DNA of 64,000 nt from Escherichia coli (GCF_030384885.1 NZ_CP128613.1); one strand, 5' to 3'. Shown: positions 29,555-47,082, counted from the stretch's first letter. Numbers and translations: made by a program. The notes: generated by a model from the letters alone, not told the origin.

Positions 29555-29568
29555 TTCAATTCCTTTTG

Positions 29569-30507
29569 TTACCAGCGCCCGGAGGCGCCACCGCCGCCAG
29601 ATGAACCGCCGCCGCCGCTGAAATTATCATTGTCAAAAGAGGATGAAGAGGAAGATGACGACGATGATGAAGAACGCCTGGAGGCCGAGTTACTTCTTTC
29701 GTAATGTGACGGTCGGTTGGCACTGCGCATCGAATCCCGAACCTTTTTGCCGAAGGGGGTAAAAGCGATGGCGACAGCCAGGAACGGTGTGGCGAAGCAG
29801 AGTAATGTTGCGAGTACTCCCCAGCTTCCGCCGAAACCTGCTATAGGTAAAACAAAGGCCAGTACAATAGCTGTGAAGCAAATTAGTCCCAGCGTTTTGA
29901 AATATCCTCTGGCGGAAATAAAGGTCAGTACTATTGCCCAGACTAACAAAGCCCACCAACCGTTAAAGGGCAAAGGGTGATCGGTCGGTGTTATCGTTGC
30001 TAAATTATTCCCCGTCAGACGATTATCAATATCGCTTATTCCCTTTTGCAAGCCGCCAGCCAGGTCGCCATTTTTAAATGCCGGAATAATACTGTTGCGA
30101 ATAATTTTCCCGGACTGCGCATCCGTAATAACGCCTTCCAGTCCGTAACCGATTTCAATACGCACGGCCTGATCCTGCCAGGCGACTAACAGTAGAATGC
30201 CATCATCGCGGTCTTTATCACCTGGTTTCCAGCTATCGAATACCCGCGTAGCGTACTGCTCGATGGTTTCATCGCCCGTTGTTTCAACCACTAACACGAC
30301 CAGTTGTGCGTGGCTTTTTTGCGTCAGCTCTTTAATCTGATTGGTCAACGTATTTACTTCATCGTTCGTCAATTTGCCGGTTAAGTCATTCACATACCTG
30401 GGTGATTCAGGCACTGGAATTTGTATGGCAAACACAGATGAACAAAAGAAAGCCATAAGGAAGATAAAATTTCGCACAGGACTTCCTCGCTTAATGAGCA
30501 TTAGCAT
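29569..30507 (-). CDS. TPM-domain membrane protein, paralog 1
   Basis: 312-aa ORF with TPM-like region (DLTGKLT...VVLVVETTGDETIEQYATRVFDSWKPGDK), Ser-rich tract, tail ...GGGGSSGGGGASGRW; start overlaps the lemA stop by 17 nt. Confidence 0.8.
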   Translation of the reverse strand: MLMLIKRGSPVRNFIFLMAFFCSSVFAIQIPVPESPRYVNDLTGKLTNDEVNTLTNQIKELTQKSHAQLVVLVVETTGDETIEQYATRVFDSWKPGDKDRDDGILLLVAWQDQAVRIEIGYGLEGVITDAQSGKIIRNSIIPAFKNGDLAGGLQKGISDIDNRLTGNNLATITPTDHPLPFNGWWALLVWAIVLTFISARGYFKTLGLICFTAIVLAFVLPIAGFGGSWGVLATLLCFATPFLAVAIAFTPFGKKVRDSMRSANRPSHYERSNSASRRSSSSSSSSSSSSFDNDNFSGGGGSSGGGGASGRW

Positions 30508-31093
30508 TCTGGCTAAAATCTATTGTTGGGGCTTTACTCACAGCGGCGACATCATCCGGCAAATAATTTTTCTTCGGTGTGTAATCCATGACTTTTGCGG
30601 TTAACACTGCGGGGAATTTGCGGATAGTGACATTATATTGTTCGATGGCTTTAATATATCTTCCTCGCGCAACGGCAATTCGATTTTCACTTCCTTCGAG
30701 CTGTACCATCAAATTTTGATAGAGTTCCTGGGCCTTTAACTCAGGGTAACGTTCACTAATTATCGTTAACTGACCGAGAGTGCGAGACACCTGCGCCTGA
30801 GCTTGTTGCCAGGTTTGTAATTTTTGTTCATCTCCCGGAGTTTGCTGAAGAGCGCTACTGGCGCGATTAGCCTGACTACGTGCCAATGTTACGGCTTCCA
30901 GTACCTCTTGTTCATGGCTGGAATAACCTTTAATACTGGCGACAAGATTAGGAATAAGATCGGCGCGACGTTGATATTGATTTAATACCTCAGACCAGGA
31001 AGCGTTAACCTGCTCATCATAGGTTTGAATATCGTTATATCCACAGCCTGATAAATTGAAAATAAATATAATTACGATGAATATTCTGAGCAT
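30491..31093 (-). CDS. lemA: LemA-family lipoprotein
   Basis: 200-aa ORF with lipoprotein signal/lipobox (IFNLSGCG) and LemA-like coiled region; first gene of a four-gene minus-strand operon. Confidence 0.8.
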   Translation of the reverse strand: MLRIFIVIIFIFNLSGCGYNDIQTYDEQVNASWSEVLNQYQRRADLIPNLVASIKGYSSHEQEVLEAVTLARSQANRASSALQQTPGDEQKLQTWQQAQAQVSRTLGQLTIISERYPELKAQELYQNLMVQLEGSENRIAVARGRYIKAIEQYNVTIRKFPAVLTAKVMDYTPKKNYLPDDVAAVSKAPTIDFSQNANAH

Positions 31094-32275: not shown

Positions 32276-33219
32276 GAGTTCCCCGCGCCAGCGGGGATAA
32301 ACCGCAAAAACATGCCTCTAATCGCCTCATATCGCCGAGTTCCCCGCGCCAGCGGGGATAAACCGTGAATTCGCGGTCGTCGGTAGTTATTGTCACAGAG
32401 TTCCCCGCGCCAGCGGGGATAAACCGTTTATATCCCCGATACGCACGACGCGGACCGGGAGTTCCCCGCGCCAGCGGGGATAAACCGCCCCGCCCTCCTG
32501 CACCACGATCGCGCCCTCAGAGTTCCCCGCGCCAGCGGGGATAAACCGCCTTACGCCTGCAACCTCGTGCCACAGTTCATGAGTTCCCCGCGCCAGCGGG
32601 GATAAACCGGTTTTCAGTCCAGCGGCAGCTACGAGGAATCGGAGTTCCCCGCGCCAGCGGGGATAAACCGGATGGTTGAGGGTTATATGATGCCAGTTTA
32701 CGGAGTTCCCCGCGCCAGCGGGGATAAACCGGCAAAAACCGGGCAATCGCAAAAAGGCGTAATGAGTTCCCCGCGCCAGCGGGGATAAACCGACGCTGAT
32801 TATTCCGTACCAGTATTGTGAGGCGAGTTCCCCGCGCCAGCGGGGATAAACCGGATGACTCTGTGGCCTGGGTGGTTACCTGTCTGAGTTCCCCGCGCCA
32901 GCGGGGATAAACCGCCCTGCCCGTTTTGCGGGAGTTCCAATGTTGAGAGTTCCCCGCGCCAGCGGGGATAAACCGCATTATTTTTAGACGGTTGCGGGAT
33001 TGGATTAGAGTTCCCCGCGCCAGCGGGGATAAACCGCGGCCTGGTCGATATCTCGCTGCTAGCGTCAAGAGTTCCCCGCGCCAGCGGGGATAAACCGTAA
33101 GATGATCTCACGGAATTGAACGAACTACGGAGTTCCCCGCGCCAGCGGGGATAAACCGGACACAGAGCGCTGCTATAGCGCCTATGCCAAGAGTTCCCCG
33201 CACCAGCGGGAATAAACCA
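32276..33219 (+). CRISPR. Type I-E CRISPR array: 16 repeats, 15 spacers of 32 nt
   Basis: 29-bp repeat GAGTTCCCCGCGCCAGCGGGGATAAACCG at a strict 61-bp period, starting 32276, 32337, 32398 ... 33191; the last repeat is degenerate (gagttccccgcaccagcgggaataaacca); AT-rich leader upstream at about 31940-32275. Confidence 0.97.
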
Positions 33220-33690
33220 CCATATAACCCGTTATCTCTTTCTCAAGTTTTTATATTAGCAGTACTCGTATTAAGCAACATATCCACGTAACACCTCATG
33301 TTCAAAATAGCTCTCCATATATGAGAAGTTCACAATTATCGATACAAAAAATCAAATTTAATTAAAGTGTTAGTTGTATGATACTTAAATCATTAAGAAA
33401 TTATCATATATTATTTTTTTAATATTGAATTGATGTTTGTTAATTTTTTCTTTAGGATAATGGTTTGTTTTTTAAGCTTATTATTCATTGATTAAGTAAT
33501 AAATCTGGAAGTTTGTCTTTGTTTTGAGGCTAATGAGTGATTTTACATAATCGCCTCTATACGCTGTTGATGAATAGTTCTTATGAATAAAGATATCCAG
33601 TTCATACTTTAAGTGAAAATTGATAAAGTACGATTCGCATAGTCTTTTATTCTAAGGACATCGATTGTAGTTAATATTCCTTGTAAAAAC

Positions 33691-33763
33691 AGGGATAAAC
33701 CGGACTTGTTATAATTCTTGATGTTGTCGAACTTATGTTCCCCGCGCCAGCGGGGATAACCAT
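33691..33763 (+). CRISPR. Degenerate orphan mini-array (partial repeat, one spacer, degenerate repeat)
   Basis: cagggataaaccg + roughly 33-nt spacer + gttccccgcgccagcggggataacc; lies about 470 bp beyond the main array, after an AT-rich leader-like stretch. Confidence 0.7.
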
Positions 33764-33808
33764 TCAGGTATGTTCAGGCCGGGCATTTTCCCGCCCGGCC
33801 TTCCTCAC

Positions 33809-35287
33809 TTACGCATTCGACCAGCTCTGGATCGAATCTGCATTCCCCAACTCACCATGCATCACTTCATACGATTTTTTCAGGATCACATCAGTGTGTT
33901 TGGTTAGGTCTTTGAAAATGCCTTTATTCATCGCGTCGTAGCGTTTGGCATTGCTCTCAATCGGCATAAAGATATCTTTCACGCGAACCATTTTGTCGAC
34001 AGCCGTTGCGTAATCCGGGTATAGCCCCAGACCTACCGCCGTATTAATCGCTGCCCCCAGGCTTGCACAACCGTTAATGGCGTTACGTCGTGCCGGAAGG
34101 TTGAACACGTCGGCAAAAATTTGCATAAACAGATCGCTGTTCGAACCGCCGCCAGTAATGATCACATGTTTCGCAAAGTGATTCATTTCATGACACATAT
34201 TGTCGTAATTGTTCTTCAGCGTCAGCGCCACGCTTTCCAGTATCGAACGATATATCCATGCGTAATCCATGCTGGAATCAAAGCCGATCATAATCCCGCG
34301 TTTGTACGGTTCCCACGGATTGGTCAGCCAGTCCAGCACCGTCATCAGACCATTACAGCCAGGCGGCACACAAGAAGCTTTTTTGTTGAGCAAATCTTCC
34401 GGTGAAAGATCCTGTGCCCTGGCATCCTGAATTAACGACTCGCCTAACATGTCGCGAAGCCAGCTCACCGTCCACATGCCTTTGCGAATACCGTAACCTT
34501 CATACAGCAAGGTTTGCGGAATAGAAGACATAATCGGCCAGTACGCTACCGGATCTTTCGGCAGTACTTTGCCGTTCATCATCAACGCGATGTAAGTGCC
34601 AAGAGAAATTACCGCCGTTTCATCATCCAGTAACCCGGCTCCCAGTGCTTCTACCGGTTTATCACTGGTGGTACAAACAACTGGCAGCCCAGCCGGGAAA
34701 TGTGTCGCCAGCGCGGCTTGTGGTGTGATATGCCCAAGAACAGTGCCCGGCATTTGCACATCAAAAAGCATCTGTCGGGGAATATTAAACTTCTCCATTA
34801 CCGCGGTATCTTCGCTCCATGCCCAGGTCTTATAATCCACCGGCCACTGACCAAAATAGTTGGCGATATTGTCTTTAAACTCGCCGGTTAAACGGTGTGT
34901 CAGATAACCTGAAAAAGAGGTGGCATATGCCACATCAGGATTGGTGTGCTCGTAGGGACGTGTTACGCGTGCATCCTGCCAGCTAATCAACGGCGCAGCT
35001 GGCGTGCCATCGGCTTTCAATAACGCACGGCAGCAACGGATAGATCCCAGACCAATGCCGACAATATCTTCTTTATTCCCGGCAAACTGGCTCATCAAAT
35101 CGTGACCAGCAAAACATAATGATGCCCATAAATCATCGTCAGGATGTTCTGCGGTATCGGCATCTGGAGTGTGCATCGGTTGTAATAAGCCTTTGCCTTC
35201 GCAAACCACGTTACCTTCCAGATCGTACATCACCACTTTTGTGCTCTGACTTCCGCCATCAATCCCTATGATGTATTTTTTCGACAT
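33809..35287 (-). CDS. ygcE: FGGY-family carbohydrate kinase
   Basis: 492-aa ORF MSKKYIIGIDGGSQSTKVVMYDLEG... with FGGY N- and C-terminal signatures. Confidence 0.82.
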   Translation of the reverse strand: MSKKYIIGIDGGSQSTKVVMYDLEGNVVCEGKGLLQPMHTPDADTAEHPDDDLWASLCFAGHDLMSQFAGNKEDIVGIGLGSIRCCRALLKADGTPAAPLISWQDARVTRPYEHTNPDVAYATSFSGYLTHRLTGEFKDNIANYFGQWPVDYKTWAWSEDTAVMEKFNIPRQMLFDVQMPGTVLGHITPQAALATHFPAGLPVVCTTSDKPVEALGAGLLDDETAVISLGTYIALMMNGKVLPKDPVAYWPIMSSIPQTLLYEGYGIRKGMWTVSWLRDMLGESLIQDARAQDLSPEDLLNKKASCVPPGCNGLMTVLDWLTNPWEPYKRGIMIGFDSSMDYAWIYRSILESVALTLKNNYDNMCHEMNHFAKHVIITGGGSNSDLFMQIFADVFNLPARRNAINGCASLGAAINTAVGLGLYPDYATAVDKMVRVKDIFMPIESNAKRYDAMNKGIFKDLTKHTDVILKKSYEVMHGELGNADSIQSWSNA

Positions 35288-35313
35288 GATTTTTCTCCTG
35301 TAATTTTCCTGGC

Positions 35314-36591
35314 TTACTTGCTGCTAGCCATTGCGGGGGTGCTATCAGCAGTACGAATTTTTTGGAACAGCAAAAAGGTAAAGACGATCACCATGCCAAG
35401 CGCCGCCATGCCCATCAGCCACATATTGCGGTAGGCTTCTGCAGCGGGCAGGGTGTCTTGCCAGTAGCCGATAATTGGGTAAACGAAGACATCCGGCAGA
35501 AATCCAATCACCGAACAAATACCTACCGTGGTGCCCATAATGTAAGACGGTGTTCTCGCTTCGCCAGGGCAGGCCCAGTACAGCCCGCGTGAGGCGTAAC
35601 AGGTGAATCCCAGAAGTAAAATCAGACCAATCCCCATCGCGACCGATTGCGGGTTAGAGTTCGTGATGAGCAGGGCAGTTAACGCCAGCAGGCCGAGTAC
35701 GGAAAGTATTTGAATCACGCGGGTAGGGGATTTCACTTTGCTGTAGGTGGTGATAATGCCACCAAGTGGGCCGCACAGTGCGCGGAAGATTTTGTTGATC
35801 ACAATCCCCATGTAGCTCGCCGCCACCAGCGACATGCCGTACATTTCGGTCAGATAGTTGGTGGAGTAACTCAGAATGGCGTAGATGGTGAAGACGCCAA
35901 AAATCACCATGCTGCAGTACCATGTGGTGCTGATGCGCAAAACGGCCAGGATGTCGCTAAGCTGGAATGACTGTTTTTCTTCGTTATTGGCATTGCGCAG
36001 GTTGTTGTTATCGCTAACAAAAAACCAGCACAGAATCCCCAATAAAATGTAGACCACACTATAGATGATAATGACCGTTTTCAGGCTGGCGCTGTCATCC
36101 GGTGCAAAGCGAGAAAAGACCCACATGGTAAACACCGCCAGCGACATTACACCGACGCCGCGCAGCCCTTCCATCCAGCCCATAATTTTCCCCTGCTCGC
36201 TATGATCGCCAAGCAACGATGCGGCTTTAATCGACACCGACCACAGCATTAAAATCGTCGTTATCGCAAAGGCGACCTGAATACAGAGCATTACCCACAG
36301 CGGTGGATACGTTGCCATTAACAGACCCAGCAATCCGGTAATGATCATCGCGGAAGTAATCATTTTGCGATGCGAAAATTTATCGGCAATAACGCCGCTG
36401 GGGGCATAAAGAATAATAGCCGCAATACCAAAGGTACTCATTATTAAACCTATCTCGGTATTGCTGAATCCCATAAATTTAGCCATGGGAATTTGATAAA
36501 TATAACGTAAATAAGCCAGATCAAAACTAACGCCGCCACTAAAACTAATTATCGCGAGGGTTATCCAACGGCGATATGAGTTGTGTTGCAT
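35314..36591 (-). CDS. yqcE: MFS transporter
   Basis: 425-aa polytopic ORF; co-directional and 26 nt upstream of ygcE. Confidence 0.75.
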   Translation of the reverse strand: MQHNSYRRWITLAIISFSGGVSFDLAYLRYIYQIPMAKFMGFSNTEIGLIMSTFGIAAIILYAPSGVIADKFSHRKMITSAMIITGLLGLLMATYPPLWVMLCIQVAFAITTILMLWSVSIKAASLLGDHSEQGKIMGWMEGLRGVGVMSLAVFTMWVFSRFAPDDSASLKTVIIIYSVVYILLGILCWFFVSDNNNLRNANNEEKQSFQLSDILAVLRISTTWYCSMVIFGVFTIYAILSYSTNYLTEMYGMSLVAASYMGIVINKIFRALCGPLGGIITTYSKVKSPTRVIQILSVLGLLALTALLITNSNPQSVAMGIGLILLLGFTCYASRGLYWACPGEARTPSYIMGTTVGICSVIGFLPDVFVYPIIGYWQDTLPAAEAYRNMWLMGMAALGMVIVFTFLLFQKIRTADSTPAMASSK

Positions 36592-36615
36592 ATCGTATTC
36601 CCATTTGTAATAGAC

Positions 36616-36663
36616 AAAAAAAAGAGAAAAGTAAGCCGCCCTTTCAGGTGGATTACTTTTCTC
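36616..36663 (-). terminator. Intrinsic-terminator-like hairpin in the yqcE 5' leader (attenuator candidate)
   Basis: Minus strand reads GAGAAAAGTAA-18 nt loop-TTACTTTTCTC followed by TTTTTTTT; perfect 11-bp stem; ends about 25 nt before the yqcE start codon. Confidence 0.6.
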
Positions 36664-36769
36664 AGGTCTCTAGTAATTGCAATAAGAAATAACATGGAAA
36701 GCAGGGGTGTTGTGTGAGAGTAGTCACGCTTCTGCTTTTTAAAATTATTTGACAATTCGAATATCACAC

Positions 36770-36785
36770 TGTGATTACGATCACA
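36770..36785. promoter_or_regulatory. CRP-binding site (perfect TGTGA-N6-TCACA core)
   Basis: TGTGATTACGATCACA read directly from the sequence; sits in the divergent yqcE / ygcW control region. Confidence 0.75.
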
Positions 36786-36836
36786 TTAGCGCTTATGCCC
36801 TTATGCTAAAAATTATCTCCAGTTACCAGAGATAAT

Positions 36837-36885
36837 GAGAAAGGTAACTTCCCTCTCGCGGGGGAAGTTACCTTTCTTTTTTTTT
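36837..36885 (+). terminator. Intrinsic-terminator-like hairpin in the ygcW 5' leader (attenuator candidate)
   Basis: GAGAAAGGTAACTTCCC-loop-GGGAAGTTACCTTTC followed by T9; ends about 25 nt before the ygcW ATG. Confidence 0.65.
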
Positions 36886-36909
36886 GCCTTACGGAAATTG
36901 GAGCTAACT

Positions 36910-37695
36910 ATGTCAATCGAATCTCTCAATGCGTTCTCAATGGATTTTTTCTCCCTGAAAGGTAAAACCGCAATTGTTACTGGTGGGAATAGCGGTTTAG
37001 GCCAGGCATTTGCCATGGCACTGGCAAAAGCAGGCGCAAATATCTTTATTCCTAGTTTCGTTAAAGATAATGGCGAAACAAAGGAAATGATTGAAAAACA
37101 GGGGGTTGAGGTGGGCTTCATGCAGGTGGATATCACCGCAGAAGGCGCGCCGCAGAAGATAATTGCCGCCTGTTGTGAACGTTTCGGCACCGTCGATATT
37201 CTGGTTAACAATGCCGGTATATGTAAGCTGAATAAGGTGCTGGATTTCGGTCGTGCCGACTGGGACCCGATGATTGACGTGAACCTGACCGCCGCATTCG
37301 AGTTAAGCTACGAAGCGGCAAAAATTATGATCCCGCAGAAAAGCGGTAAAATCATTAATATCTGTTCACTGTTTTCTTACTTAGGTGGTCAATGGTCTCC
37401 TGCTTATTCTGCCACTAAACACGCCCTTGCCGGATTTACCAAAGCCTATTGCGATGAATTAGGTCAATATAATATTCAGGTAAATGGTATTGCCCCAGGA
37501 TATTACGCTACCGATATCACCCTGGCGACACGCAGTAATCCAGAAACCAATCAGCGCGTTCTTGATCATATTCCAGCAAACCGTTGGGGCGATACTCAGG
37601 ATTTAATGGGCGCAGCCATATTTCTCGCAAGTCCGGCATCGAATTATGTCAACGGGCATTTATTAGTGGTTGATGGCGGTTATTTAGTGCGCTAA
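36910..37695 (+). CDS. ygcW: Short-chain dehydrogenase/reductase
   Basis: ORF track starts 36835; ATG at 36910 gives MSIESLNAFSMDFFSLKGKTAIVTGGNSGLGQAFA (TGxxxGxG Rossmann motif). Confidence 0.82.
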   Translation: MSIESLNAFSMDFFSLKGKTAIVTGGNSGLGQAFAMALAKAGANIFIPSFVKDNGETKEMIEKQGVEVGFMQVDITAEGAPQKIIAACCERFGTVDILVNNAGICKLNKVLDFGRADWDPMIDVNLTAAFELSYEAAKIMIPQKSGKIINICSLFSYLGGQWSPAYSATKHALAGFTKAYCDELGQYNIQVNGIAPGYYATDITLATRSNPETNQRVLDHIPANRWGDTQDLMGAAIFLASPASNYVNGHLLVVDGGYLVR

Positions 37696-37764
37696 TCCAT
37701 AACGGTGGTTTCTGATTTCTTTTATTAATGACTATTCCATTTTTATTATCAGGAAGGAATTACT

Positions 37765-39219
37765 ATGTCTTTATCTCGCGCAGCGATTGTCGACCAGCTA
37801 AAGGAAATTGTTGGTGCAGATCGCGTAATTACCGATGAAACGGTATTGAAGAAAAACAGTATTGATCGTTTTCGTAAATTTCCGGATATTCATGGTATTT
37901 ATACTTTGCCTATTCCGGCAGCGGTCGTAAAACTCGGTTCCACTGAGCAAGTGTCCCGTGTGCTGAATTTTATGAATGCACACAAAATTAACGGCGTACC
38001 ACGTACCGGTGCTTCCGCTACCGAAGGCGGGCTGGAAACCGTTGTGGAAAACTCGGTGGTGCTTGATGGCTCTGCAATGAATCAAATCATTAATATTGAT
38101 ATAGAGAATATGCAGGCGACGGCGCAATGTGGCGTTCCGCTGGAAGTGCTGGAAAACGCGTTGCGTGAAAAAGGTTACACCACGGGGCACTCTCCGCAGT
38201 CAAAACCGTTGGCGCAGATGGGTGGACTGGTGGCGACCCGTAGTATTGGGCAGTTCTCCACACTCTACGGCGCAATCGAGGATATGGTCGTTGGCCTGGA
38301 AGCAGTACTGGCTGATGGCACCGTGACACGCATTAAAAACGTGCCACGACGCGCGGCGGGTCCGGACATTCGTCACATCATCATCGGCAACGAAGGCGCA
38401 TTGTGCTATATCACTGAAGTCACTGTGAAAATCTTTAAATTCACCCCGGAAAACAACCTCTTCTACGGCTATATCCTGGAAGACATGAAAACCGGCTTCA
38501 ACATCCTGCGTGAAATCATGGTGGAAGGATATCGTCCGTCGATCGCTCGTTTGTATGACGCTGAAGATGGCACCCAACACTTCACCCATTTTGCCGACGG
38601 AAAATGCGTGCTGATCTTTATGGCTGAAGGTAACCCTCGCATTGCGAAGGCGACGGGCGAAGGGATTGCTGAAATCGTGGCACGTTACCCGCAATGCCAG
38701 CGCGTGGACAGCAAGCTGATCGAAACCTGGTTTAACAACCTGAACTGGGGACCGGATAAAGTGGCTGCCGAACGTGTGCAGATCCTCAAAACCGGCAACA
38801 TGGGCTTTACCACCGAAGTGTCCGGCTGCTGGAGTTGCATACACGAAATCTACGAAAGCGTTATTAACCGTATTCGTACCGAGTTCGCGCACGCCGACGA
38901 CATCACCATGCTGGGCGGTCACTCCTCTCATAGCTATCAGAACGGCACCAACATGTACTTCGTCTACGACTACAACGTCGTTGACTGTAAGCCGGAAGAG
39001 GAAATCGACAAATACCACAATCCGCTCAACAAAATCATCTGCGAAGAAACCATTCGCCTCGGCGGTTCGATGGTACACCATCACGGTATCGGTAAACATC
39101 GTGTTCACTGGAGCAAACTGGAACACGGCAGCGCGTGGACATTGCTGGAAGGGCTGAAAAAACAGTTCGATCCTAACGGTATTATGAATACGGGTACTAT
39201 CTATCCGATTGAAAAATAA
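37765..39219 (+). CDS. ygcU: FAD-linked oxidase (FAD-binding PCMH type, GlcD / alkyl-DHAP-synthase-like)
   Basis: 484-aa ORF with an N-terminal FAD-binding domain pattern. Confidence 0.8.
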   Translation: MSLSRAAIVDQLKEIVGADRVITDETVLKKNSIDRFRKFPDIHGIYTLPIPAAVVKLGSTEQVSRVLNFMNAHKINGVPRTGASATEGGLETVVENSVVLDGSAMNQIINIDIENMQATAQCGVPLEVLENALREKGYTTGHSPQSKPLAQMGGLVATRSIGQFSTLYGAIEDMVVGLEAVLADGTVTRIKNVPRRAAGPDIRHIIIGNEGALCYITEVTVKIFKFTPENNLFYGYILEDMKTGFNILREIMVEGYRPSIARLYDAEDGTQHFTHFADGKCVLIFMAEGNPRIAKATGEGIAEIVARYPQCQRVDSKLIETWFNNLNWGPDKVAAERVQILKTGNMGFTTEVSGCWSCIHEIYESVINRIRTEFAHADDITMLGGHSSHSYQNGTNMYFVYDYNVVDCKPEEEIDKYHNPLNKIICEETIRLGGSMVHHHGIGKHRVHWSKLEHGSAWTLLEGLKKQFDPNGIMNTGTIYPIEK

Positions 39220-39312
39220 TGTGTCAGGCAGCGTTTCGCGATGACGGGGCGTTGTCTTTTCGGCTTCTCAACCGGGAAGCCGTTCTTATTACCGGACAAT
39301 GAAGGGGTAAAG

Positions 39313-40650
39313 ATGAACACTTCACCGGTGCGAATGGATGATTTACCGCTTAACCGTTTTCACTGTCGAATTGCTGCGCTGACTTTCGGCGCACACCTGA
39401 CCGACGGTTATGTTCTCGGCGTCATTGGTTACGCCATAATTCAGCTTACTCCAGCCATGCAACTGACGCCGTTTATGGCGGGAATGATCGGCGGCTCGGC
39501 GCTACTTGGCCTGTTTATCGGCAGCCTGGTTTTGGGCTGGATCTCCGACCATATCGGGCGGCAAAAAATCTTCACCTTCAGCTTTATGCTGATTACGCTC
39601 GCCTCGTTCCTGCAATTTTTTGCCACCACGCCAGAGCATCTTATTGGACTACGCATTTTGATCGGCATTGGTCTGGGAGGCGACTATTCAGTAGGTCACA
39701 CCTTGCTGGCTGAATTTTCCCCGCGCCGCCATCGCGGTATTTTGCTAGGCGCTTTCAGCGTGGTGTGGACCGTAGGTTATGTGTTGGCAAGTCTTGCCGG
39801 ACATCACTTTATTAGCGAAAGCCCCGAAGCCTGGCGATGGTTACTTGCATCGGCGGCATTTCCTGCCCTGTTGATTACGTTGTTACGTTGGGGAACGCCA
39901 GAATCGCCACGCTGGCTACTGCGCCAGGGGCGTTTTGCAGAAGCTCACGCTATCGTGCATCGCTATTTTGGTCCCCATGTTTTACTGGGCGATGAAGTGG
40001 CAACGGCGACCCATAAACACATCAAAACCTTGTTCTCTTCGCGCTACTGGCGGCGCACGGCGTTTAACAGCGTCTTCTTTGTCTGCCTCGTAATCCCATG
40101 GTTTGTGATTTATACCTGGCTGCCAACTATCGCCCAAACTATTGGACTGGAAGATGCGCTGACTGCCAGCCTGATGCTTAATGCGTTGTTAATTGTGGGC
40201 GCGCTGCTGGGATTATTTCTGACGCACCTGCTGGCACATCGCAAATTTTTGCTGGGAAGTTTTTTGCTGCTGGCGGCAACGCTGGTAGTGATGGCCTGTT
40301 TGCCTTCTGGCAGTTCATTAACGCTGCTGCTTTTTGTTCTCTTCAGCACCACCATTTCGGCAGTCAGTAATCTGGTGGGCATTTTGCCTGCGGAAAGTTT
40401 TCCTACTGACATTCGCTCGCTGGGTGTCGGTTTTGCCACTGCCATGAGTCGGTTGGGGGCGGCGGTAAGTACTGGCCTGCTGCCGTGGGTGCTGGCGCAG
40501 TGGGGAATGCAAGTCACCTTATTGCTCCTGGCGGCAGTGTTGTTGGTTGGTTTTGTTGTGACCTGGCTATGGGCACCAGAAACCAAAGCACTCCCGCTGG
40601 TGGCGGCGGGAAATGTAGGAGGTACTAATGAACATTCTGTTAGCATTTAA
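39313..40650 (+). CDS. ygcS: MFS sugar-type transporter
   Basis: ORF track starts 39241; ATG at 39313 preceded by GAAGGGG gives MNTSPVRMDDLPLNRFH...; polytopic. Confidence 0.78.
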   Translation: MNTSPVRMDDLPLNRFHCRIAALTFGAHLTDGYVLGVIGYAIIQLTPAMQLTPFMAGMIGGSALLGLFIGSLVLGWISDHIGRQKIFTFSFMLITLASFLQFFATTPEHLIGLRILIGIGLGGDYSVGHTLLAEFSPRRHRGILLGAFSVVWTVGYVLASLAGHHFISESPEAWRWLLASAAFPALLITLLRWGTPESPRWLLRQGRFAEAHAIVHRYFGPHVLLGDEVATATHKHIKTLFSSRYWRRTAFNSVFFVCLVIPWFVIYTWLPTIAQTIGLEDALTASLMLNALLIVGALLGLFLTHLLAHRKFLLGSFLLLAATLVVMACLPSGSSLTLLLFVLFSTTISAVSNLVGILPAESFPTDIRSLGVGFATAMSRLGAAVSTGLLPWVLAQWGMQVTLLLLAAVLLVGFVVTWLWAPETKALPLVAAGNVGGTNEHSVSI

Positions 40651-41407
40651 AGCCGAACCGGATGCCGGAATGCTGGCGGAAAAAGAGTGGCAGGCAGCGG
40701 CTCAGGGTAATAGCGGACCGGATGTTTCGCTTCTGCGAAGTTTACTCGGTGCTGATGAACAGGCTGCCGCCGCGCTGCTGTTGGCGCAGAGAAAAAACGG
40801 TACGTCGATGTCTTTAACCGCGTTGAGCATGGGGGATGAACGGGCGTTGCACTGGCTGCGCTATCTCATGGCTCTTGGGTTTGAGGAAGCTGTATTGCTG
40901 GAGACGGCGGCAGATCTGCGCTTTGCGCCGGAATTTGTCGCTCGCCATATTGCCGAATGGCAGCGCCAGAATCCGCTGGATCTGATCATTACTGGCTGCC
41001 AGAGCAGCGAAGGGCAGAACGGGCAAACGCCATTTTTGCTGGCGGAAATGCTGACCTGGCCCTGTTTTACCCAGGTGGAGCGTTTTACTCTCGACGCACC
41101 GTTTATCTCGCTCGAACAGCGTACTGAACATGGATTACGCTGTTGTCGGGTTCGCTTGCCTGCGGTGATTGCCGTGCGCCAGTGTGGCGAGGTGGCCTTG
41201 CCAGTACCGGGAATGCGCCAGCGAATGGCTGCGGGGAAAGCTGAAATTATCCGCAAAACTGTTACTGCTGAATCGTCAGCGATGCAGTGCCGGCAACTGG
41301 AAAGGCCAGAGCAACGACGCGGTGCAACGCTTCTTGATGGGCAAACGGTAGCAGAAAAAGCGCAAAAGCTATGGCAGGACTATTTACGCCAAAGGATGCA
41401 GCCATGA
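40628..41407 (+). CDS. ygcR: Electron-transfer flavoprotein beta-subunit-like (FixA-like)
   Basis: 259-aa ORF; paired with the following ETF-alpha-like gene; overlaps the end of ygcS. Confidence 0.75.
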   Translation: MNILLAFKAEPDAGMLAEKEWQAAAQGNSGPDVSLLRSLLGADEQAAAALLLAQRKNGTSMSLTALSMGDERALHWLRYLMALGFEEAVLLETAADLRFAPEFVARHIAEWQRQNPLDLIITGCQSSEGQNGQTPFLLAEMLTWPCFTQVERFTLDAPFISLEQRTEHGLRCCRVRLPAVIAVRQCGEVALPVPGMRQRMAAGKAEIIRKTVTAESSAMQCRQLERPEQRRGATLLDGQTVAEKAQKLWQDYLRQRMQP

Positions 41408-42264
41408 ATATCGCCATTGTGACAATAAATCAGGAACATGCCGCAATAGCGGGCTGGCTGGCGGAGCAGGATTTCAGCGGCAGCACATTAACGCACTGGC
41501 AAATCGAGCCGCAGCCGATGGTCGCGGAACAGGTGCTGGATGCGCTGGTAGAACAGTGGCAGCGAACGCCTGCGGACGTTGTTCTCTTTCCGCCGGGAAC
41601 GTTTGGCGATGAACTGGCTACCCGCCTGTCCTGGCGTTTACATGGTGCCAGTATATGCCAGGTGACTTCATTAAATATTCCAACCGGAAGCGTACGCAAA
41701 TCCCACTGGGGAAATGCGCTAACGGCGACGCTGCAAACAGAAAAACGCCCGCTATGCCTTTCCCTTGCCCGCCAGGCGGGAGCAGTGAAAAATGCCACGT
41801 TGCCCTCTGGTATGCAGCAACTGAACATTGTCCCCGGCGCGCTTCCCGACTGGCTGGTTAGCACAGAGGATCTGAAAAATGTTACCCACGACCCATTAGC
41901 TGAGGCCAGACGGGTGCTGGTGGTGGGGCAGGGCGGAGAGGCAGATAACCAGGAAATCGCTATGCTGGCAGAAAAGCTGGGAGCCGAAGCGGGCTACAGT
42001 CGGGCGCGAGTAATGAACGGTGGCGTTGATGCCGAAAAAGTGATTGGTATTTCCGGACATCTGCTGGCACCTGAGGTGTGTATTGTTGTTGGCGCTTCCG
42101 GCGCAGCAGCGTTAATGGCGGGCGTCCGCAATAGCAAGTTTGTGGTGGCGATTAATCATGACGCCAGCGCGGCGGTATTTTCACAGGCAGATGTTGGCGT
42201 GGTTGATGACTGGAAAGCGGTGCTGGAGGCACTGGTGACAACCATTCACGCAGATTGCCAATAA
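41404..42264 (+). CDS. ygcQ: Electron-transfer flavoprotein alpha-subunit-like (FixB-like)
   Basis: ATG at 41404 gives MNIAIVTINQEHAAIAGW...; C-terminal FAD-binding ETF-alpha pattern. Confidence 0.75.
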   Translation: MNIAIVTINQEHAAIAGWLAEQDFSGSTLTHWQIEPQPMVAEQVLDALVEQWQRTPADVVLFPPGTFGDELATRLSWRLHGASICQVTSLNIPTGSVRKSHWGNALTATLQTEKRPLCLSLARQAGAVKNATLPSGMQQLNIVPGALPDWLVSTEDLKNVTHDPLAEARRVLVVGQGGEADNQEIAMLAEKLGAEAGYSRARVMNGGVDAEKVIGISGHLLAPEVCIVVGASGAAALMAGVRNSKFVVAINHDASAAVFSQADVGVVDDWKAVLEALVTTIHADCQ

Positions 42265-42269
42265 CGTGC

Positions 42270-42380
42270 TGCCGGATGATCCTGTCTACGGTTCTGGGCT
42301 GGGGACTGTAGGCCTGATAAGACGCGTCAAGCGTCGTATCAGGCGCTGAATGCCGGATTAGGCATGTGGCCTACAAATCA
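42270..42380. repeat. BIME / REP cluster
   Basis: ctgtaggcctgataagacgcgtcaagcgtcgtatcaggcgctgaatgccggattaggcatgtggcctacaa; several palindromic units between convergent ygcQ and ygcP. Confidence 0.75.
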
Positions 42381-42409
42381 CACAAATTCAATTCGTTACG
42401 ATTATCTCG

Positions 42410-42985
42410 TCAAAGCAATTTTTTCGCTAACGTCCAGACCCCGGTATTCGTGGTAGAAAGCGCCACTACACCGGCGTTAATCGCATTACGCGCATCTTCT
42501 TCATCGCACACCAGCCCGCCAGCAATCAGCGGCTGGTGGATTTTCTCCGTTACCCAGCCCAGCACTTTAGGCATACAGCCTGGCAGAATTTCAATACAAT
42601 CAGGATTCGATTGCGCAACCTGCTTATCAATGTTGTGAAAAGAAATCGAGTCGACAATAAACAAGCGATGAATACAGAAAAAGCCTTCCGCTCTCGCCGC
42701 TTTTAGCATTGACGCTTTGGTACTGATAATGCCGTCCGCCTCGGTCACCAGTTTCAGAAACTGAATTACTACTTCTTTATTTGACGCGCCTTCCAGCAAA
42801 TCGACATGAATAAAAGCATATTTTCCGGCGTTCTTAATCTTTTTGACGATATGACTGATGGTGCAAATATTGCCGTATAACACGGAAATAAACTGGCATT
42901 CAGAATCGATTGCCAACTGCAGGCTGGCATTATCTTTAACGGCAGCAATCACCGGATTCTGGCGGAGCAGGTGTAAGAGGGGCAT
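42410..42985 (-). CDS. ygcP: GlpP-family (glycerol-3-phosphate-responsive) antiterminator-like protein
   Basis: 191-aa ORF MPLLHLLRQNPVIAAVKDNASLQLAIDSECQFISVLYGNI... matches the GlpP / G3P_antiterm family. Confidence 0.72.
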   Translation of the reverse strand: MPLLHLLRQNPVIAAVKDNASLQLAIDSECQFISVLYGNICTISHIVKKIKNAGKYAFIHVDLLEGASNKEVVIQFLKLVTEADGIISTKASMLKAARAEGFFCIHRLFIVDSISFHNIDKQVAQSNPDCIEILPGCMPKVLGWVTEKIHQPLIAGGLVCDEEDARNAINAGVVALSTTNTGVWTLAKKLL

Positions 42986-43001
42986 AAATTATCCTTATTA
43001 T

Positions 43002-43262
43002 TTATCCAAAGCGGTAGGTGATGCCGAATCCGGAAGGCGGATAGCGCCACTGTTGTAGGTTTTTTTCATCACACAGTAAACGGCAGGTGCCACACTCCAG
43101 GCAGCCGCGATAATCAACGCGTAAGTCGCCTTCCGGCGTGAGCGAAAAAAGACCAGCCGGACAAGCGTTAATCAACCGTTCTGCCGTCTGGCGCTCAACG
43201 GAGTCTGCCGGAACAATATGTGGCGCATCAGCAGCGCGCCAGAGATTACGGGCTACAGACAT
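43002..43262 (-). CDS. ygcO: Ferredoxin-like protein (FixX-like)
   Basis: ORF track gives a 98-aa frame; probable start is the internal Met (MSVARNLWR...); Cys motif CLECGTCRLLC. Confidence 0.7.
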   Translation of the reverse strand: MSVARNLWRAADAPHIVPADSVERQTAERLINACPAGLFSLTPEGDLRVDYRGCLECGTCRLLCDEKNLQQWRYPPSGFGITYRFG

Positions 43263-44524
43263 CGAATACTCCTGACAACATCGCCCGCCAGATGCCACAG
43301 GCCATGACGACGTAAATGACGCCAGAGCAACTGGCGCAGCGGCGGAACAGGTTTATCACCTTGATCCCATAAATCACGGGAAATATCCTGCATTAACGCA
43401 GGCCACTTACGGTACCAGCCCGGGCGTTGCAAAAGCGCCGGAACATGCTGATAACGCTGTAGAACATCCCACAACATGCTGTGCTCTACATTGTGATGAT
43501 AAAGCGGAAACAGATTTTGCGGCTCGCGGTGCTGACAGGCGCTTATCAGCGTGTGTGCCGCCGCCTGCGCGCCAGTCAGCGCCATATCCATGCCGCGCAC
43601 GGAAATTCCGGTATTGACGCAACTGCGCAACGTATCGCCCACCAGCAGCCAGCCGTTACCGCCATATTGCACCGGCATACTGTGCAGCCCACCTTCCGGC
43701 ACCAGATGCGCGCCATACTCCAGTGATTCCGTGTTTTTGATAAGCGGGCGCACTGCCGGATGCGTTTTAAAGCGAGCCAGCAGCTCGCTTGCCGGAACAC
43801 GACTTTGCGTAAGTGAAGAGAGCGGGCAAACAATCCCTAACGAGAGCGTTTGTTGATTAGTATAAAGAAATGCGCCGCCGGGTAAGTCATCACAGATTTC
43901 GCCGCTGAATAACAACGCTGCGCCTTCGTTATTCTCCAGATGAAAACGTTCTTCAATAGCGGATGTTTCCAGTGACAGAACTTCTTTAATCCCCAACGCC
44001 ATCACTTCGCCAGCAGGACGAGTCACTAACCCGTGACGCTCAGACAGGACGCTGTTGGCACCTTCTGCCAGCACCACATAACGGGCGCGGAGAATATCGT
44101 CACCACAAATAACGCCGCAAACTCTGCCTTTTTCTTCATACAGTGCATCCACCGTCGTACCGGGGATGCATTCGACACCTTCTTTTTCGGCTTCGGCAAC
44201 CAGCCACGGATCGAATCGCGCACGTAATACACTCCAGGATTCACCGTCGGGCTGTAAGCTGGAAAACGTCGTTGCGCCATCGGGCGTTAACAGAGAAAGG
44301 CTTTCGTGAGTGATGCGTCGTTCAAGGGGCGCGGTCAGGTGAAATTGAGGGAGGAGTTCCGCAAGTGCATGGGTATATAACCGCCCGCCGGAAAGATTTT
44401 TGCTGCCGGGAATTTCAGCGCGTTCCAGTAACAAAACGGATAAACCCGCTCGCGCGCAGCGTAACGCGCAAGCAGTGCCTGCAATACCGGCACCAATAAT
44501 AATAATGTCGCAGTCGTCTTCCAT
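43253..44524 (-). CDS. ygcN: FAD-dependent oxidoreductase (FixC-like, ETF-quinone oxidoreductase type)
   Basis: ORF track gives 433 aa; probable start MEDDCDIIIIGAGIAGTACA (dinucleotide-binding GxGxxG). Confidence 0.78.
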   Translation of the reverse strand: MEDDCDIIIIGAGIAGTACALRCARAGLSVLLLERAEIPGSKNLSGGRLYTHALAELLPQFHLTAPLERRITHESLSLLTPDGATTFSSLQPDGESWSVLRARFDPWLVAEAEKEGVECIPGTTVDALYEEKGRVCGVICGDDILRARYVVLAEGANSVLSERHGLVTRPAGEVMALGIKEVLSLETSAIEERFHLENNEGAALLFSGEICDDLPGGAFLYTNQQTLSLGIVCPLSSLTQSRVPASELLARFKTHPAVRPLIKNTESLEYGAHLVPEGGLHSMPVQYGGNGWLLVGDTLRSCVNTGISVRGMDMALTGAQAAAHTLISACQHREPQNLFPLYHHNVEHSMLWDVLQRYQHVPALLQRPGWYRKWPALMQDISRDLWDQGDKPVPPLRQLLWRHLRRHGLWHLAGDVVRSIRCL

Positions 44525-44601
44525 GTCATGCCCCAGATATCCAGAACACAACACCCTAACATAGCGTTACTTAAGGGAAATTGACCGCCGACACACTCTT
44601 A

Positions 44602-44967
44602 TCATTCGCCGCGATAGATACAACCTGCGGTGCAGGTTTCTTTTACCATCACCGCACTTAACAGCGGCACAACGGGTTTAACCTGATCCCAAATCCATTT
44701 TGCTAAAACTTCGCTGGTTGGGTTTTCCAGACCTGGAATATCATTGAGATAATGGTGATCGAGGCGCTCATAAGTTGGCTTAAACGCTGCTTTCAGTTCA
44801 GCGAAATCGATAATCCAGCCCGTATGCGGATCGACTTCCCCGGTAATTTCCAGTCGCACCATAAAGGAATGCCCGTGCAGGCGACCACATTTATGCCCTT
44901 CCGGGACGTGTGGTAAGCGGTGAGCGGCTTCGAAGGTGAAATCTTTAAATAACGTGGTGGACATCAT
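44602..44967 (-). CDS. queD: 6-carboxy-5,6,7,8-tetrahydropterin synthase
   Basis: ORF track gives a 149-aa frame; product begins at the internal [34 protein letters not shown] (121 aa). Confidence 0.88.
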
Positions 44968-45282
44968 AATTTCTCTACAGGACGATAAAACCGCCGTAGA
45001 GTACCGGAAAGGCTGTTTTTTCGCATTATCTAAAACGACTTTGTTGCGCAAAATCGCTGATTTATCTTAATGATTGGATAAATTCATTTGTTTTTCATTG
45101 GGTTGAGTAATCTATTTTGTTGTTAAAGACTATTGCTAAAACAGGTTAGTCGATTTGGTTATTAGTTATCGCTATCCCGTCTTTAATCCACACCGTTCAT
45201 CCCGTTAACCTTACCTTCTCTTCTGTTTTATGGGCGCTGACAGGGCGCAGAAACAGCTTTGCTTACTGGAACATAACGACGC

Positions 45283-47082
45283 ATGACGACACAGGTCCCA
45301 CCTTCCGCGTTGCTTCCGTTGAACCCGGAGCAACTGGCACGCCTTCAGGCGGCCACGACCGATTTAACTCCCACCCAGCTTGCCTGGGTTTCTGGCTATT
45401 TCTGGGGCGTGCTCAACCAGCAGCCTGCTGCGCTTACAGCGACGCCAGCGCCCGCCGCAGAAATGCCGGGTATAACTATTATCTCCGCTTCGCAAACCGG
45501 CAATGCGCGCCGGGTTGCTGAAACATTACGCGATGATTTATTAGCGGCAAAACTGAACGTTAAGCTGGTGAACGCGGGCGACTATAAATTCAAACAAATC
45601 GCCAGCGAAAAACTGCTCATCGTGGTGACGTCAACGCAAGGTGAAGGGGAACCGCCGGAAGAGGCCGTCGCGCTGCATAAGTTCCTGTTCTCCAAAAAAG
45701 CGCCGAAGCTGGAAAACACCGCGTTTGCCGTGTTTAGTCTCGGCGATAGCTCTTATGAATTTTTCTGCCAGTCCGGGAAAGATTTCGATAGCAAGCTGGC
45801 GGAACTGGGCGGTGAACGCCTGCTCGACCGTGTCGATGCCGACGTTGAATACCAGGCTGCTGCCAGCGAGTGGCGCGCCCGCGTGGTCGATGTTCTTAAA
45901 TCGCGCGCGCCTGTCGCAGCACCTTCACAATCCGTCGCTACTGGCGCGGTAAATGAAATCCACACCAGCCCGTACAGCAAAGACGCGCCGCTGGTGGCGA
46001 GCCTTTCGGTTAACCAGAAAATTACCGGGCGTAACTCTGAAAAAGACGTTCGCCATATCGAAATTGACTTAGGTGACTCTGGCCTGCGTTATCAGCCGGG
46101 TGACGCGCTGGGCGTCTGGTATCAGAACGATCCGGCACTGGTGAAAGAACTTGTCGAACTGCTGTGGCTGAAAGGTGATGAACCTGTCACCGTTGAGGGC
46201 AAAACCCTGCCGCTGAATGAGGCGCTACAGTGGCATTTTGAACTCACCGTCAACACCGCCAACATCGTTGAGAACTACGCCACGCTAACCCGCAGTGAAA
46301 CGCTGCTGCCGCTGGTGGGCGATAAATCGAAGTTACAGCATTACGCCGCGACGACGCCGATTGTCGACATGGTGCGTTTTTCTCCGGCACAGCTTGACGC
46401 TGAAGCCCTGATTAACTTGCTGCGCCCGCTGACGCCGCGCCTGTACTCCATCGCCTCCTCGCAGGCGGAAGTCGAGAACGAAGTACACGTCACCGTTGGC
46501 GTGGTGCGTTATGACGTGGAAGGCCGCGCCCGTGCTGGCGGTGCCTCCAGCTTCCTTGCGGACCGTGTGGAAGAAGAGGGCGAAGTCCGCGTATTTATCG
46601 AACATAACGACAACTTCCGCCTACCAGCCAACCCGGAAACGCCGGTGATTATGATTGGCCCGGGCACCGGCATCGCACCGTTCCGCGCCTTTATGCAGCA
46701 ACGTGCTGCTGACGAAGCGCCGGGTAAAAACTGGCTGTTCTTCGGCAACCCACACTTTACGGAAGATTTCCTCTACCAGGTGGAGTGGCAGCGCTACGTC
46801 AAAGAGGGCGTGCTGACACGTATCGATCTCGCCTGGTCGCGCGATCAAAAAGAAAAAATTTACGTACAAGACAAACTGCGCGAACAGGGCGCAGAGCTGT
46901 GGCGCTGGATCAATGACGGTGCCCACATTTATGTCTGCGGCGACGCTAATCGCATGGCGAAAGACGTTGAACAGGCACTTCTGGAAGTGATTGCCGAATT
47001 TGGTGGCATGGACACCGAAGCGGCGGATGAATTTTTAAGTGAGCTGCGCGTAGAGCGCCGTTATCAGCGAGATGTCTACTAA
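45283..47082 (+). CDS. cysJ: Sulfite reductase [NADPH] flavoprotein alpha subunit
   Basis: 599-aa ORF with flavodoxin-like N-terminus and FAD/NADPH reductase C-terminus. Confidence 0.95.

Follow-up and report, generated by a model that had tools for sequence, protein, structure and literature searches.

The ygc locus of Escherichia coli, ten genes at positions 33809 to 44524 of a 64,000-nucleotide stretch of DNA (GCF_030384885.1, NZ_CP128613.1; hereafter the window), is an already known orphan cluster, its members belonging to those y-genes of the best-studied bacterium for which no function has yet been assigned. What is new is a three-enzyme core formed by YgcW, YgcU and YgcE, an active site in YgcU of the type found in the alkyl-dihydroxyacetone phosphate (alkyl-DHAP) synthase AGPS, a leader attenuator RNA that occurs across phyla and is tied to the regulator YgcP, and a link to quaternary amines. 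We propose that the locus may direct the CRP-activated, attenuation-controlled breakdown of a 1-substituted glycerol by way of a substituted DHAP, with YgcU acting last. As a whole, this scheme appears to us possible, if somewhat short of an even chance.

Open reading frames lie exactly where an earlier note on this DNA had placed the ten named genes, and the same genes are annotated in E. coli 2013C-4282 (NZ_CP027579), to which the 10,716 bases of the cluster are 100% identical. Every domain named in that note was recovered in hidden Markov model scans with Pfam and NCBIfam: FGGY_N/C, two major facilitator superfamily (MFS) domains, a short-chain dehydrogenase/reductase (SDR), FAD_binding_4 with FAD-oxidase_C, electron-transfer flavoprotein (ETF) beta and alpha, G3P_antiterm, a ferredoxin of the FixX kind, and a FixC-like protein that includes the ETF-QO domain for ubiquinone binding. 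None of the ten proteins reaches an equivalog cut-off in NCBIfam. The features of the cluster, in window positions, are as follows.

ygcE, 33809-35287, minus strand: FGGY kinase, 492 aa, second gene of the yqcE-ygcE operon
yqcE, 35314-36591, minus strand: MFS_1 transporter, 425 aa
Leader attenuator RNA before yqcE (second copy), 36610-36684, minus strand: found with a covariance model
CRP site TGTGATTACGATCACA, 36770-36785, between the two divergent leaders: read from the sequence
Leader attenuator RNA before ygcW, 36815-36890, plus strand: found by terminator scan and covariance model
ygcW, 36910-37695, plus strand: SDR dehydrogenase, 261 aa, first gene of the ygcWUSRQ operon
ygcU, 37765-39219, plus strand: AGPS-like flavin adenine dinucleotide (FAD) enzyme, 484 aa
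ygcS, 39241-40650, plus strand: sugar-porter-type MFS transporter, 469 aa
ygcR, 40628-41407, plus strand: ETF beta, its start overlapping the end of ygcS by 23 nt
ygcQ, 41404-42264, plus strand: short ETF alpha, 286 aa, its start overlapping the end of ygcR by 4 nt
ygcP, 42410-42985, minus strand: GlpP-family (PF04309) antiterminator protein, final gene of ygcN-ygcO-ygcP
ygcO, 43002-43262, minus strand: FixX-like ferredoxin, 86 aa
ygcN, 43253-44524, minus strand: FixC-like FAD oxidoreductase with the ubiquinone-binding domain of ETF-ubiquinone oxidoreductase (ETF-QO), 423 aa

Enzyme core, the flavoenzyme YgcU and the redox genes

A scan of one genome per species yielded 67 loci, which were compared with all ten proteins by tblastn (locus numbers below carry the prefix L). 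Among these loci, ygcW, ygcU and ygcE occur together in Enterobacterales, Bacillaceae, Sporomusa, Syntrophomonadaceae, Desulfobacterales and Spirochaeta, as well as in Vibrio and Clostridium, and are often accompanied by a GlpP-type regulator; outside the enterobacteria, most hosts come from the sea, from saline places or from sediments. In the Firmicutes loci, identity to E. coli is 61-79% for ygcW, 44-57% for ygcE and 51-59% for the YgcP homologues, and YgcU is more than 70% identical in Sporomusa, Alkalihalobacillus, Desulfobacula and Photobacterium. The gene arrangement is not a product of chance, as the same order recurs in dozens of other species. Within E. coli, at least 80% of the region was found in 5060 of 5426 complete genomes (about 93%). 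With core enzymes more than 70% identical across phyla in addition, many bacteria appear to use this unnamed pathway.

The ETF/FixCX module, which the earlier note had named first, is not central to the system. This module is missing from many loci, while ygcW, ygcU and ygcE are always kept. Genes ygcRQ are lacking in Erwinia, Pantoea, Izhakiella, Ewingella, Serratia proteamaculans, S. quinivorans and every Bacillaceae locus, and ygcNO are present in Enterobacterales loci only. In Pluralibacter, YgcU is 91% identical, yet YgcR and YgcQ are about 45% identical. Judged by gene content, the ETF/FixCX half is accessory to the three-enzyme core. Of the uptake-oxidation-phosphorylation pathway with a dedicated ETF that had been read into the cluster, the catabolic part stands, with the ETF outside its core. 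Two loci, L005, a metagenome-assembled genome (MAG) labelled 'Planctomycetota', and L028, labelled 'Chryseobacterium sp.', carry ygcU genes 99% and 88% identical to that of E. coli; in L028, the genes also stand in the complete Enterobacteriaceae order, with queD and cysJ among them. Both are probably contaminating Enterobacteriaceae contigs.

In sequence searches of the PDB, AGPS is the best match of YgcU (4.9e-40, or 1.7e-62 with a family profile), the top AGPS relatives being the mammalian and Dictyostelium enzymes (4bby, 2uuu); the best D-lactate/glycolate-type enzyme scores 7.6e-38. Residues R262, Y398 and H438-H440 of YgcU align to R419, Y578 and H615-H617 of AGPS, and all are invariant across 24 diverse members of the YgcU family. 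Functional importance of R419 and Y578 is indicated by the existence of Arg419His and Tyr578Phe AGPS mutant entries in the PDB. The C-terminal motif reads VHHHGIG in YgcU and SHHHGVG in AGPS, as opposed to TGEHGVG in the D-lactate dehydrogenase (D-LDH)-type enzyme 9qgz. In the GEHG[IV]G motif of GlcD and the D-2-hydroxyacid dehydrogenases, Glu and His bind metal or substrate. YgcU does not reach the GlcD equivalog (145 bits versus a cut-off of 568), and in a Foldseek search with its AlphaFold model (pLDDT 82.9), ranks 1 to 26 are all AGPS (E ~3e-30, TM-score ~0.78). By its sequence, YgcU belongs with the AGPS-like enzymes, keeping their Arg, Tyr and His-His-His. A reading of YgcU as a GlcD-type hydroxy-acid oxidase is not upheld, AGPS being the nearest relative and HHHG taking the place of GEHG.

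AGPS (4bby, 2uuu) thus provides the best sequence and structure match, with the same two-domain FAD fold, but it is redox-neutral and biosynthetic, whereas YgcU is encoded in a CRP-controlled catabolic operon together with transporters, a kinase and an ETF. Another comparison is offered by LctBCD of Acetobacterium woodii (7qh2), which is among the matches of both YgcU and YgcQ and in which a VAO/GlcD-fold flavoenzyme is likewise combined with EtfAB. YgcU differs from it in having the AGPS motif and not that of the hydroxy-acid dehydrogenases.

The dehydrogenases found with YgcU point to glycerol chemistry. Enterococcus canis has, in place of the SDR, a GldA-type glycerol dehydrogenase (444 bits versus an NCBIfam cut-off of 336). 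An inducible operon of Pseudomonas aeruginosa, part of the GliR regulon, combines PA3026 (AGPS-like oxidoreductase), PA3025 (GlpD homologue) and PA3024 (FGGY kinase), and was assigned to 'glycerolipid metabolism' with no known substrate (PMC8151288). Like ygc, it is inducible and joins an AGPS-like FAD oxidoreductase to a glycerol-phosphate-type dehydrogenase and an FGGY kinase; unlike ygc, it has a GlpD homologue for the SDR, an AraC-type activator for the GlpP-type attenuator, and no ETF. The same arrangement recurs in L074 (349-5317, minus strand), where a paralogous trio of a 561-aa FAD oxidase, an FGGY kinase and a GlpD-like DAO/DAO_C protein is divergent from, and adjoins, an SDR/YgcU/ETF/FGGY cluster of the ygc type in the same genome. 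Because three unrelated dehydrogenases of the glycerol or glycerol-phosphate type fill the same slot, the dehydrogenase step would act on the C2 hydroxyl of a glycerol. As to the kinase, the nearest solved relatives of YgcE are the autoinducer-2 kinase LsrK and glycerol kinases, and its substrate is left undefined, since no specific equivalog is reached despite the FGGY_N and FGGY_C domains.

The ETF and Fix-type proteins match PF01012, PF00766 and PF21162. YgcO matches the FixX model NF011993 at 2.4e-23, below its cut-off, and YgcN scores 379 bits with PRK10015 and 359 bits with FixC, with PF21162 present. Because all these scores lie below the orthologue cut-offs, the proteins are paralogues of FixABCX. 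In PDB searches, YgcQ and YgcR are as remote from bifurcating ETFs of known structure as from non-bifurcating ones. The set as such, ETF beta, ETF alpha, a FixC-like protein with ubiquinone-binding domain and a FixX-like ferredoxin, is shared with E. coli FixABCX (cai/fix) and YdiQRST. In contrast to these, the ygc genes lie in two operons on opposite strands, with ygcRQ on the plus and ygcNO on the minus strand, as had been noted before; they are dispensable in many species, and the partner of the ETF is a VAO-family flavoenzyme and not an acyl-CoA dehydrogenase.

In anaerobe clusters, a second GlcD-like FAD oxidase of 490-542 aa follows the ETF genes, at these positions:

L003, 13241-14782
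L068, 13233-14735
L072, 2437-3909
L073, 13283-14845
L074, 9789-11417

Clostridium sediminicola (L072) has, in addition, a second ETF pair, the alpha subunit of which begins, like LctC and CarE, with a ferredoxin domain. This second oxidase/ETF set suggests an extra ETF-coupled oxidation step in anaerobes that is missing in E. coli.

Leader RNAs, YgcP and CRP

In the ygcW leader, a terminator scan identified a 19-bp stem (36837-36878) followed by U9 ending at 36885, so that the terminator (36837-36885) ends 25 nt before the ygcW start codon. Upstream, AGUUACC (36821-36827) can pair with GGUAACU (36843-36849) inside the 5' arm of the terminator to form an antiterminator; the two structures are mutually exclusive. 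The folding energy is −34.2 kcal/mol (z −6.2) for the ygcW leader and −22.3 kcal/mol (z −4.2) for the yqcE leader. Sixteen Enterobacterales keep AGTTACYNGAG...GAGAAARGTRRCTTC (Y, C or T; R, A or G; N, any base), with variation in the loop and the 3' arm. In an alignment of 28 sequences, Firmicutes included, 96.9% of the cells of the antiterminator helix are paired (slid controls, 18-56%) and both sides have changed in four of its seven pairs. The corresponding values for the lower stem of the terminator are 96.4% (slid controls, 53-65%) and five of 11 pairs. Covariation is thereby seen in each of the two competing helices.

A covariance model built on the leader finds only two true copies in the window, before ygcW (80.6 bits) and before yqcE (66.8 bits, E 2.9e-10), and no copy before ygcN, ygcP or ygcS. 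All Enterobacterales loci to which the model was applied have the divergent second copy at the yqcE position. Across 4185 E. coli genomes, identity of the leader is 99% or more, compared to about 95% for the coding genes of this strain versus other strains. A scan of positions 33000-45400 against Rfam returned no family at the leaders, just a weak REP-like naRNA4 match and a spurious snoRNA match, and no feature is annotated under the leader match in the eight genome records listed.

Outside the Enterobacterales, the leader co-occurs with YgcP. It was found in all eight loci with a YgcP homologue, two of the matches being weak, and in none of the 11 loci without one, which carry RpiR-type, sigma-54-type or other regulators. 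YgcP matches PF04309 at 2e-62 over its full length, and its subfamily is at least 54% identical across phyla, the best 120 YgcP matches all belonging to the ygc subfamily. Named simply as a regulator in the earlier note, YgcP can be described more closely, as a putative RNA-binding antiterminator of the PF04309 family with a candidate target in the leader RNA. The B. subtilis GlpP system, acting on the glpD and glpFK leaders, is similar in that a PF04309 protein is combined with an intrinsic terminator in the leaders of catabolic operons. It differs in that the ygc system occurs in both Proteobacteria and Firmicutes, its targets are not glp genes, and its leader is in no Rfam family. The characterised GlpP responds to glycerol-3-phosphate (G3P). 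We infer that YgcP binds the antiterminator in response to a ligand, probably not G3P but a phosphate ester specific to the pathway. The leader terminator provides a ready-made read-through reporter for an inducer search.

Between the two leaders, the CRP site TGTGATTACGATCACA (TGTGA..TC) is conserved in the 16 Enterobacterales. It was found to be bound in vivo in enterotoxigenic E. coli (PMC4287617) and in vitro with a Kd of ~1.7 nM (PMC12871828). The sequence also shows a possible further CRP-like site, TGTGAGAGTAGTCACG (36713-36728), at an atypical distance from the yqcE leader.

Candidate substrate, proposed reactions and competing explanations

Transporters and neighbouring genes of the non-enterobacterial clusters bear on the substrate. 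The same leader precedes BCCT genes in Sporomusa (L003), a Firmicutes MAG (L068), Vibrio hannami (L071) and Clostridium sediminicola (L072), the leader-controlled operon of V. hannami also containing a YqcE homologue. In Salsuginibacillus and Alkalicoccus, the leader stands before OpuA-type ATP-binding cassette (ABC) operons that include an OpuAC binding protein. In other loci, such genes stand beside the core: an OpuA-type ABC operon in a Syntrophomonadaceae MAG and a BCCT gene in L002 and L075. L073 and L074 have MttB-family genes within or adjoining the operon; MttB-type enzymes without pyrrolysine demethylate quaternary amines. L002 further encodes an aspartase-like lyase, a betaine-aldehyde-dehydrogenase-like enzyme, a Zn-dependent alcohol dehydrogenase and a protein of the APH/choline-kinase fold. 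That the BCCT genes are coincidental neighbours was considered and ruled out, as the same leader precedes BCCT or OpuA genes in six lineages. In the non-enterobacterial clusters, this gene content points to a compound with a phosphorylatable glycerol-like part and a trimethylammonium-type group. As E. coli has MFS transporters instead, we infer rather than observe that the same compound is used there. In E. canis, the gene after the YgcU homologue (L069, 11486-12358) encodes a very hydrophobic protein of 290 aa with no Pfam match, perhaps a so far uncharacterised permease that takes up the substrate of the pathway.

The scheme that we propose would proceed as follows. Both divergent operons, yqcE-ygcE and ygcWUSRQ, open with a leader that can fold either into the terminator or into the upstream antiterminator helix. 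YgcP, made from the separate ygcN-ygcO-ygcP operon, would stabilize the antiterminator on binding a phosphorylated intermediate, so that both leaders are read through, and CRP would add control by carbon starvation. A 1-substituted glycerol would be taken up, with YgcS and YqcE doing in E. coli what BCCT and OpuA transporters do elsewhere. YgcW would oxidize the C2 hydroxyl to a ketone and YgcE would phosphorylate the free primary hydroxyl, the order of these two steps being uncertain. The product, a 1-substituted DHAP, would be of the substrate class of alkyl-DHAP synthase, and YgcU would remove or oxidize the C1 substituent at its flavin, giving a compound at the level of triose phosphate and the free head group. 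In (facultative) anaerobes, the ETF YgcRQ would move electrons between the flavin of YgcU and quinone via the ETF-QO-like YgcNO. Such an electron-sink role fits the distribution of the ETF genes, which strict and facultative anaerobes have and aerobic bacilli lack.

The C1 substituent would most likely be a quaternary-ammonium head group, and candidate substrates would be a deacylated betaine-lipid head group, that is, a glyceryl ether, or a glycerophosphocholine-like compound. Deacylated betaine-lipid head groups are found in nature, one example being GCC in giant clams (PMC10362313). In a more specific form of the proposal, which we hold to be doubtful, YgcU would be the first catabolic 'alkyl-DHAP etherase', acting on betaine-lipid glyceryl ethers under the control of the cross-phylum leader bound by YgcP. 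AGPS chemistry would then run in the cleavage direction, and YgcW, YgcE and YgcU would together split glyceryl ethers that resist ordinary hydrolases, with glyceryl-N,N,N-trimethylhomoserine from DGTS and the head groups of DGCC or DGTA as candidates. The products would be triose phosphate and the free betaine alcohol, the latter to be demethylated by MttB in anaerobes or oxidized and deaminated in bacilli. A carbonyl beside the C-O bond is the usual means of ether activation, as in lignin cleavage by LigD with LigE/F and in the MurQ etherase. These systems follow the same chemical logic, the carbonyl being introduced by a dehydrogenase or by opening of a ring; their enzyme families are unrelated, and no membership is implied. 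As the adjacent carbonyl makes the ether cleavable, the costly route taken for an ether-linked head group would be explained. If true, the proposed scheme would give an AGPS-type flavoenzyme a catabolic role and narrow the compounds to be tested to substituted glycerols, especially quaternary-ammonium ethers or esters. There may also be an unrecognised step here in the turnover of head groups from betaine lipids or phosphatidylcholine, whether in the gut, on plants, in insects or in the sea.

Several observations weigh against breakdown of a substituted glycerol in E. coli. The cluster there has no BCCT or OpuA transporter, and deletion of the P. aeruginosa PA3026-PA3024 operon gave no Biolog phenotype (PMC8151288). 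The VAO/GlcD fold is common to plain dehydrogenases, D-LDHs scoring only slightly below AGPS in Foldseek, so that fold alone does not decide and the kinship of YgcU with AGPS rests on the motif. YgcU is, moreover, about 170 residues shorter than AGPS, aligning from about AGPS residue 163 and leaving the first ~160 residues with no counterpart. The N-terminal domain of AGPS contributes to a long hydrophobic substrate tunnel. A dedicated ETF suggests a net oxidation by YgcU, which is not known for the redox-neutral AGPS. Finally, E. coli hydrolyses glycerophosphocholine by GlpQ and UgpQ, next to which a costly second route would be odd.

Other points of this kind favour a conventional polyol or sugar-acid pathway, close to the sugar alcohol or sugar acid that the earlier note had put forward, with import by the MFS transporters, oxidation by YgcW, phosphorylation by YgcE and a GlcD-type YgcU passing electrons through ETF to quinone, with no loss of a substituent. 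YgcW, at 348 bits against the KduD cut-off of 369 (NF005390), resembles KduD and the gluconate 5-dehydrogenases, which would suit a sugar acid, as would the likeness of YqcE to sugar-acid and anion transporters. YqcE shows weak similarity to the D-galactonate (ACS) subfamily, to which it is closest, and to the PgtP/GlpT (organophosphate) subfamily, and YgcS is closest to sugar porters. Lactate dehydrogenases of the LctD type, which share the fold, work with ETF partners (7qh2 among the matches), and control by CRP is typical of sugar catabolism. Set against this, the cluster holds no aldolase, isomerase, dehydratase or decarboxylase gene for a C4-C6 skeleton, HHHG as in AGPS replaces the D-LDH-type GEHG in YgcU, the regulator is of the GlpP family, the characterised member of which senses G3P, and the co-regulated transporters and neighbours in other lineages are of the betaine type (BCCT, OpuA, MttB). 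On balance, a sugar alcohol or sugar acid appears unlikely as the substrate.

The ETF genes might also be read as a sign that YgcU, like GlpD or GlpABC, is a dehydrogenase of (substituted) G3P, oxidizing C2 via YgcRQ and YgcNO to quinone, in which case its AGPS-like residues would just bind the glycerone-phosphate part and YgcW would act elsewhere on the molecule. Oxidation of G3P-type compounds is normally coupled to flavin and quinone, the ETF is annotated as co-transcribed with ygcU and is kept beside YgcU in strict anaerobes, and a GlpP-type sensor is present. However, the Pseudomonas and L074 versions have a GlpD homologue as well as the AGPS-like enzyme, arguing that the two are not redundant; the ETF is missing from many loci, and conservation of the whole Arg/Tyr/HHH set goes beyond the needs of phosphate binding. 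We therefore consider this function decidedly unlikely. Conservation of the AGPS catalytic residues could also be taken to mean that YgcU is a true alkyl-DHAP synthase serving ether-lipid synthesis. This is hardly credible in view of the missing N-terminal region and of a catabolic context comprising CRP control, importers, a kinase and an attenuator of the type found in inducible catabolic operons; E. coli is, besides, not known for ether-lipid synthesis.

Selection, published data and genomic setting

The ygc genes could, alternatively, be decaying or silent relics with no present function in E. coli, for which the lack of a reported phenotype or substrate, the absence of ygcW-ygcU from about 6% of complete E. 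coli genomes (they were found in 5099 of 5426) and the fast divergence of the ETF and Fix genes might be cited. Comparison with other Escherichia and Citrobacter alleles, at synonymous divergence (dS) of 0.2-0.5 or higher, gave ratios of non-synonymous to synonymous divergence (dN/dS) of 0.01-0.23 over all ten genes, indicating purifying selection. Values of 0.01-0.05 were obtained for ygcW, ygcU, ygcP, ygcE and yqcE, and of 0.07-0.23 for ygcR, ygcQ, ygcO and ygcN (ygcR, 0.09-0.20; ygcQ, 0.13-0.23). We reject the relic explanation, which is extremely improbable, because dN/dS is low in all ten genes. The reading frames are also intact, the leader is highly conserved as described above, and the CRP site is occupied in vivo and among the tightest listed for the genome (PMC4287617, PMC12871828). 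In enterohaemorrhagic E. coli, D-serine induces ygcU 1.69-fold (PMC13012123).

In line with the earlier note, which knew of no assigned substrate, full-text literature searched by gene names and concepts held no biochemical assignment of the ygc cluster. The sole functional hints in that literature are CRP binding, the small D-serine induction and an effect of YgcS on nicotinamide mononucleotide (NMN). A 2026 PNAS paper refers to ygcU merely as 'an additional FAD-binding oxidoreductase' (PMC13012123). Overexpression of ygcS raised the NMN yield from nicotinamide, YgcS being 26.5% identical to NiaP (PMC8601175). The NMN effect and the likeness to NiaP are only an indirect hint to the function of YgcS.

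The following features flank the cluster, in agreement with the flanks given before.

CRISPR array, 32276-33219: on the same side of the cluster as queE (annotation of NZ_CP027579)
queD, 44602-44964: followed by cysJIH on the other flank (annotation of NZ_CP027579)

The label 'island', which had been applied to the locus, does not fit its ordinary base composition or its place in the same queE-queD slot of many Enterobacteriaceae. The GC content per kb is 0.40-0.57, which scatters about the mean of the genome and does not shift abruptly at the cluster borders, and no mobility genes are annotated in the matching record NZ_CP027579. In tblastn searches of the Enterobacteriaceae loci, the cluster was always found between queE and queD-cysJ, and genomes with the cluster in this slot include those of Citrobacter, Klebsiella spallanzanii, Raoultella, Pluralibacter, Yokenella, Cedecea, Buttiauxella and Mixta. 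The GC content, the missing mobility-gene annotation and the constant slot do not support a horizontally acquired or compositional island.

The alleles of this strain are unusually divergent over positions 33809-47082, a segment that includes queD and cysJ. Over ygcW-ygcU, no other complete E. coli genome carrying these genes exceeds 95.2% identity, and dS versus other E. coli is 0.2-0.5, about the distance to E. albertii. This divergent neighbourhood reflects either deep allelic lineages or import from another Escherichia lineage. Between the convergent ygcQ and ygcP genes lies a palindrome resembling repetitive extragenic palindromes or bacterial interspersed mosaic elements (REP/BIME; 42311-42371, minus strand), which matches Rfam naRNA4 below threshold (31.1 bits versus a gathering score of 59.5). 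Farther out, annotation places a Hok/Gef-family toxin gene (49866-50018) and a frameshifted cas3 pseudogene (from 50214) 3' of cysH, and a LemA gene with three TPM-domain genes (27507-31093), one of them a truncated pseudogene (29806-30477), upstream of queE.

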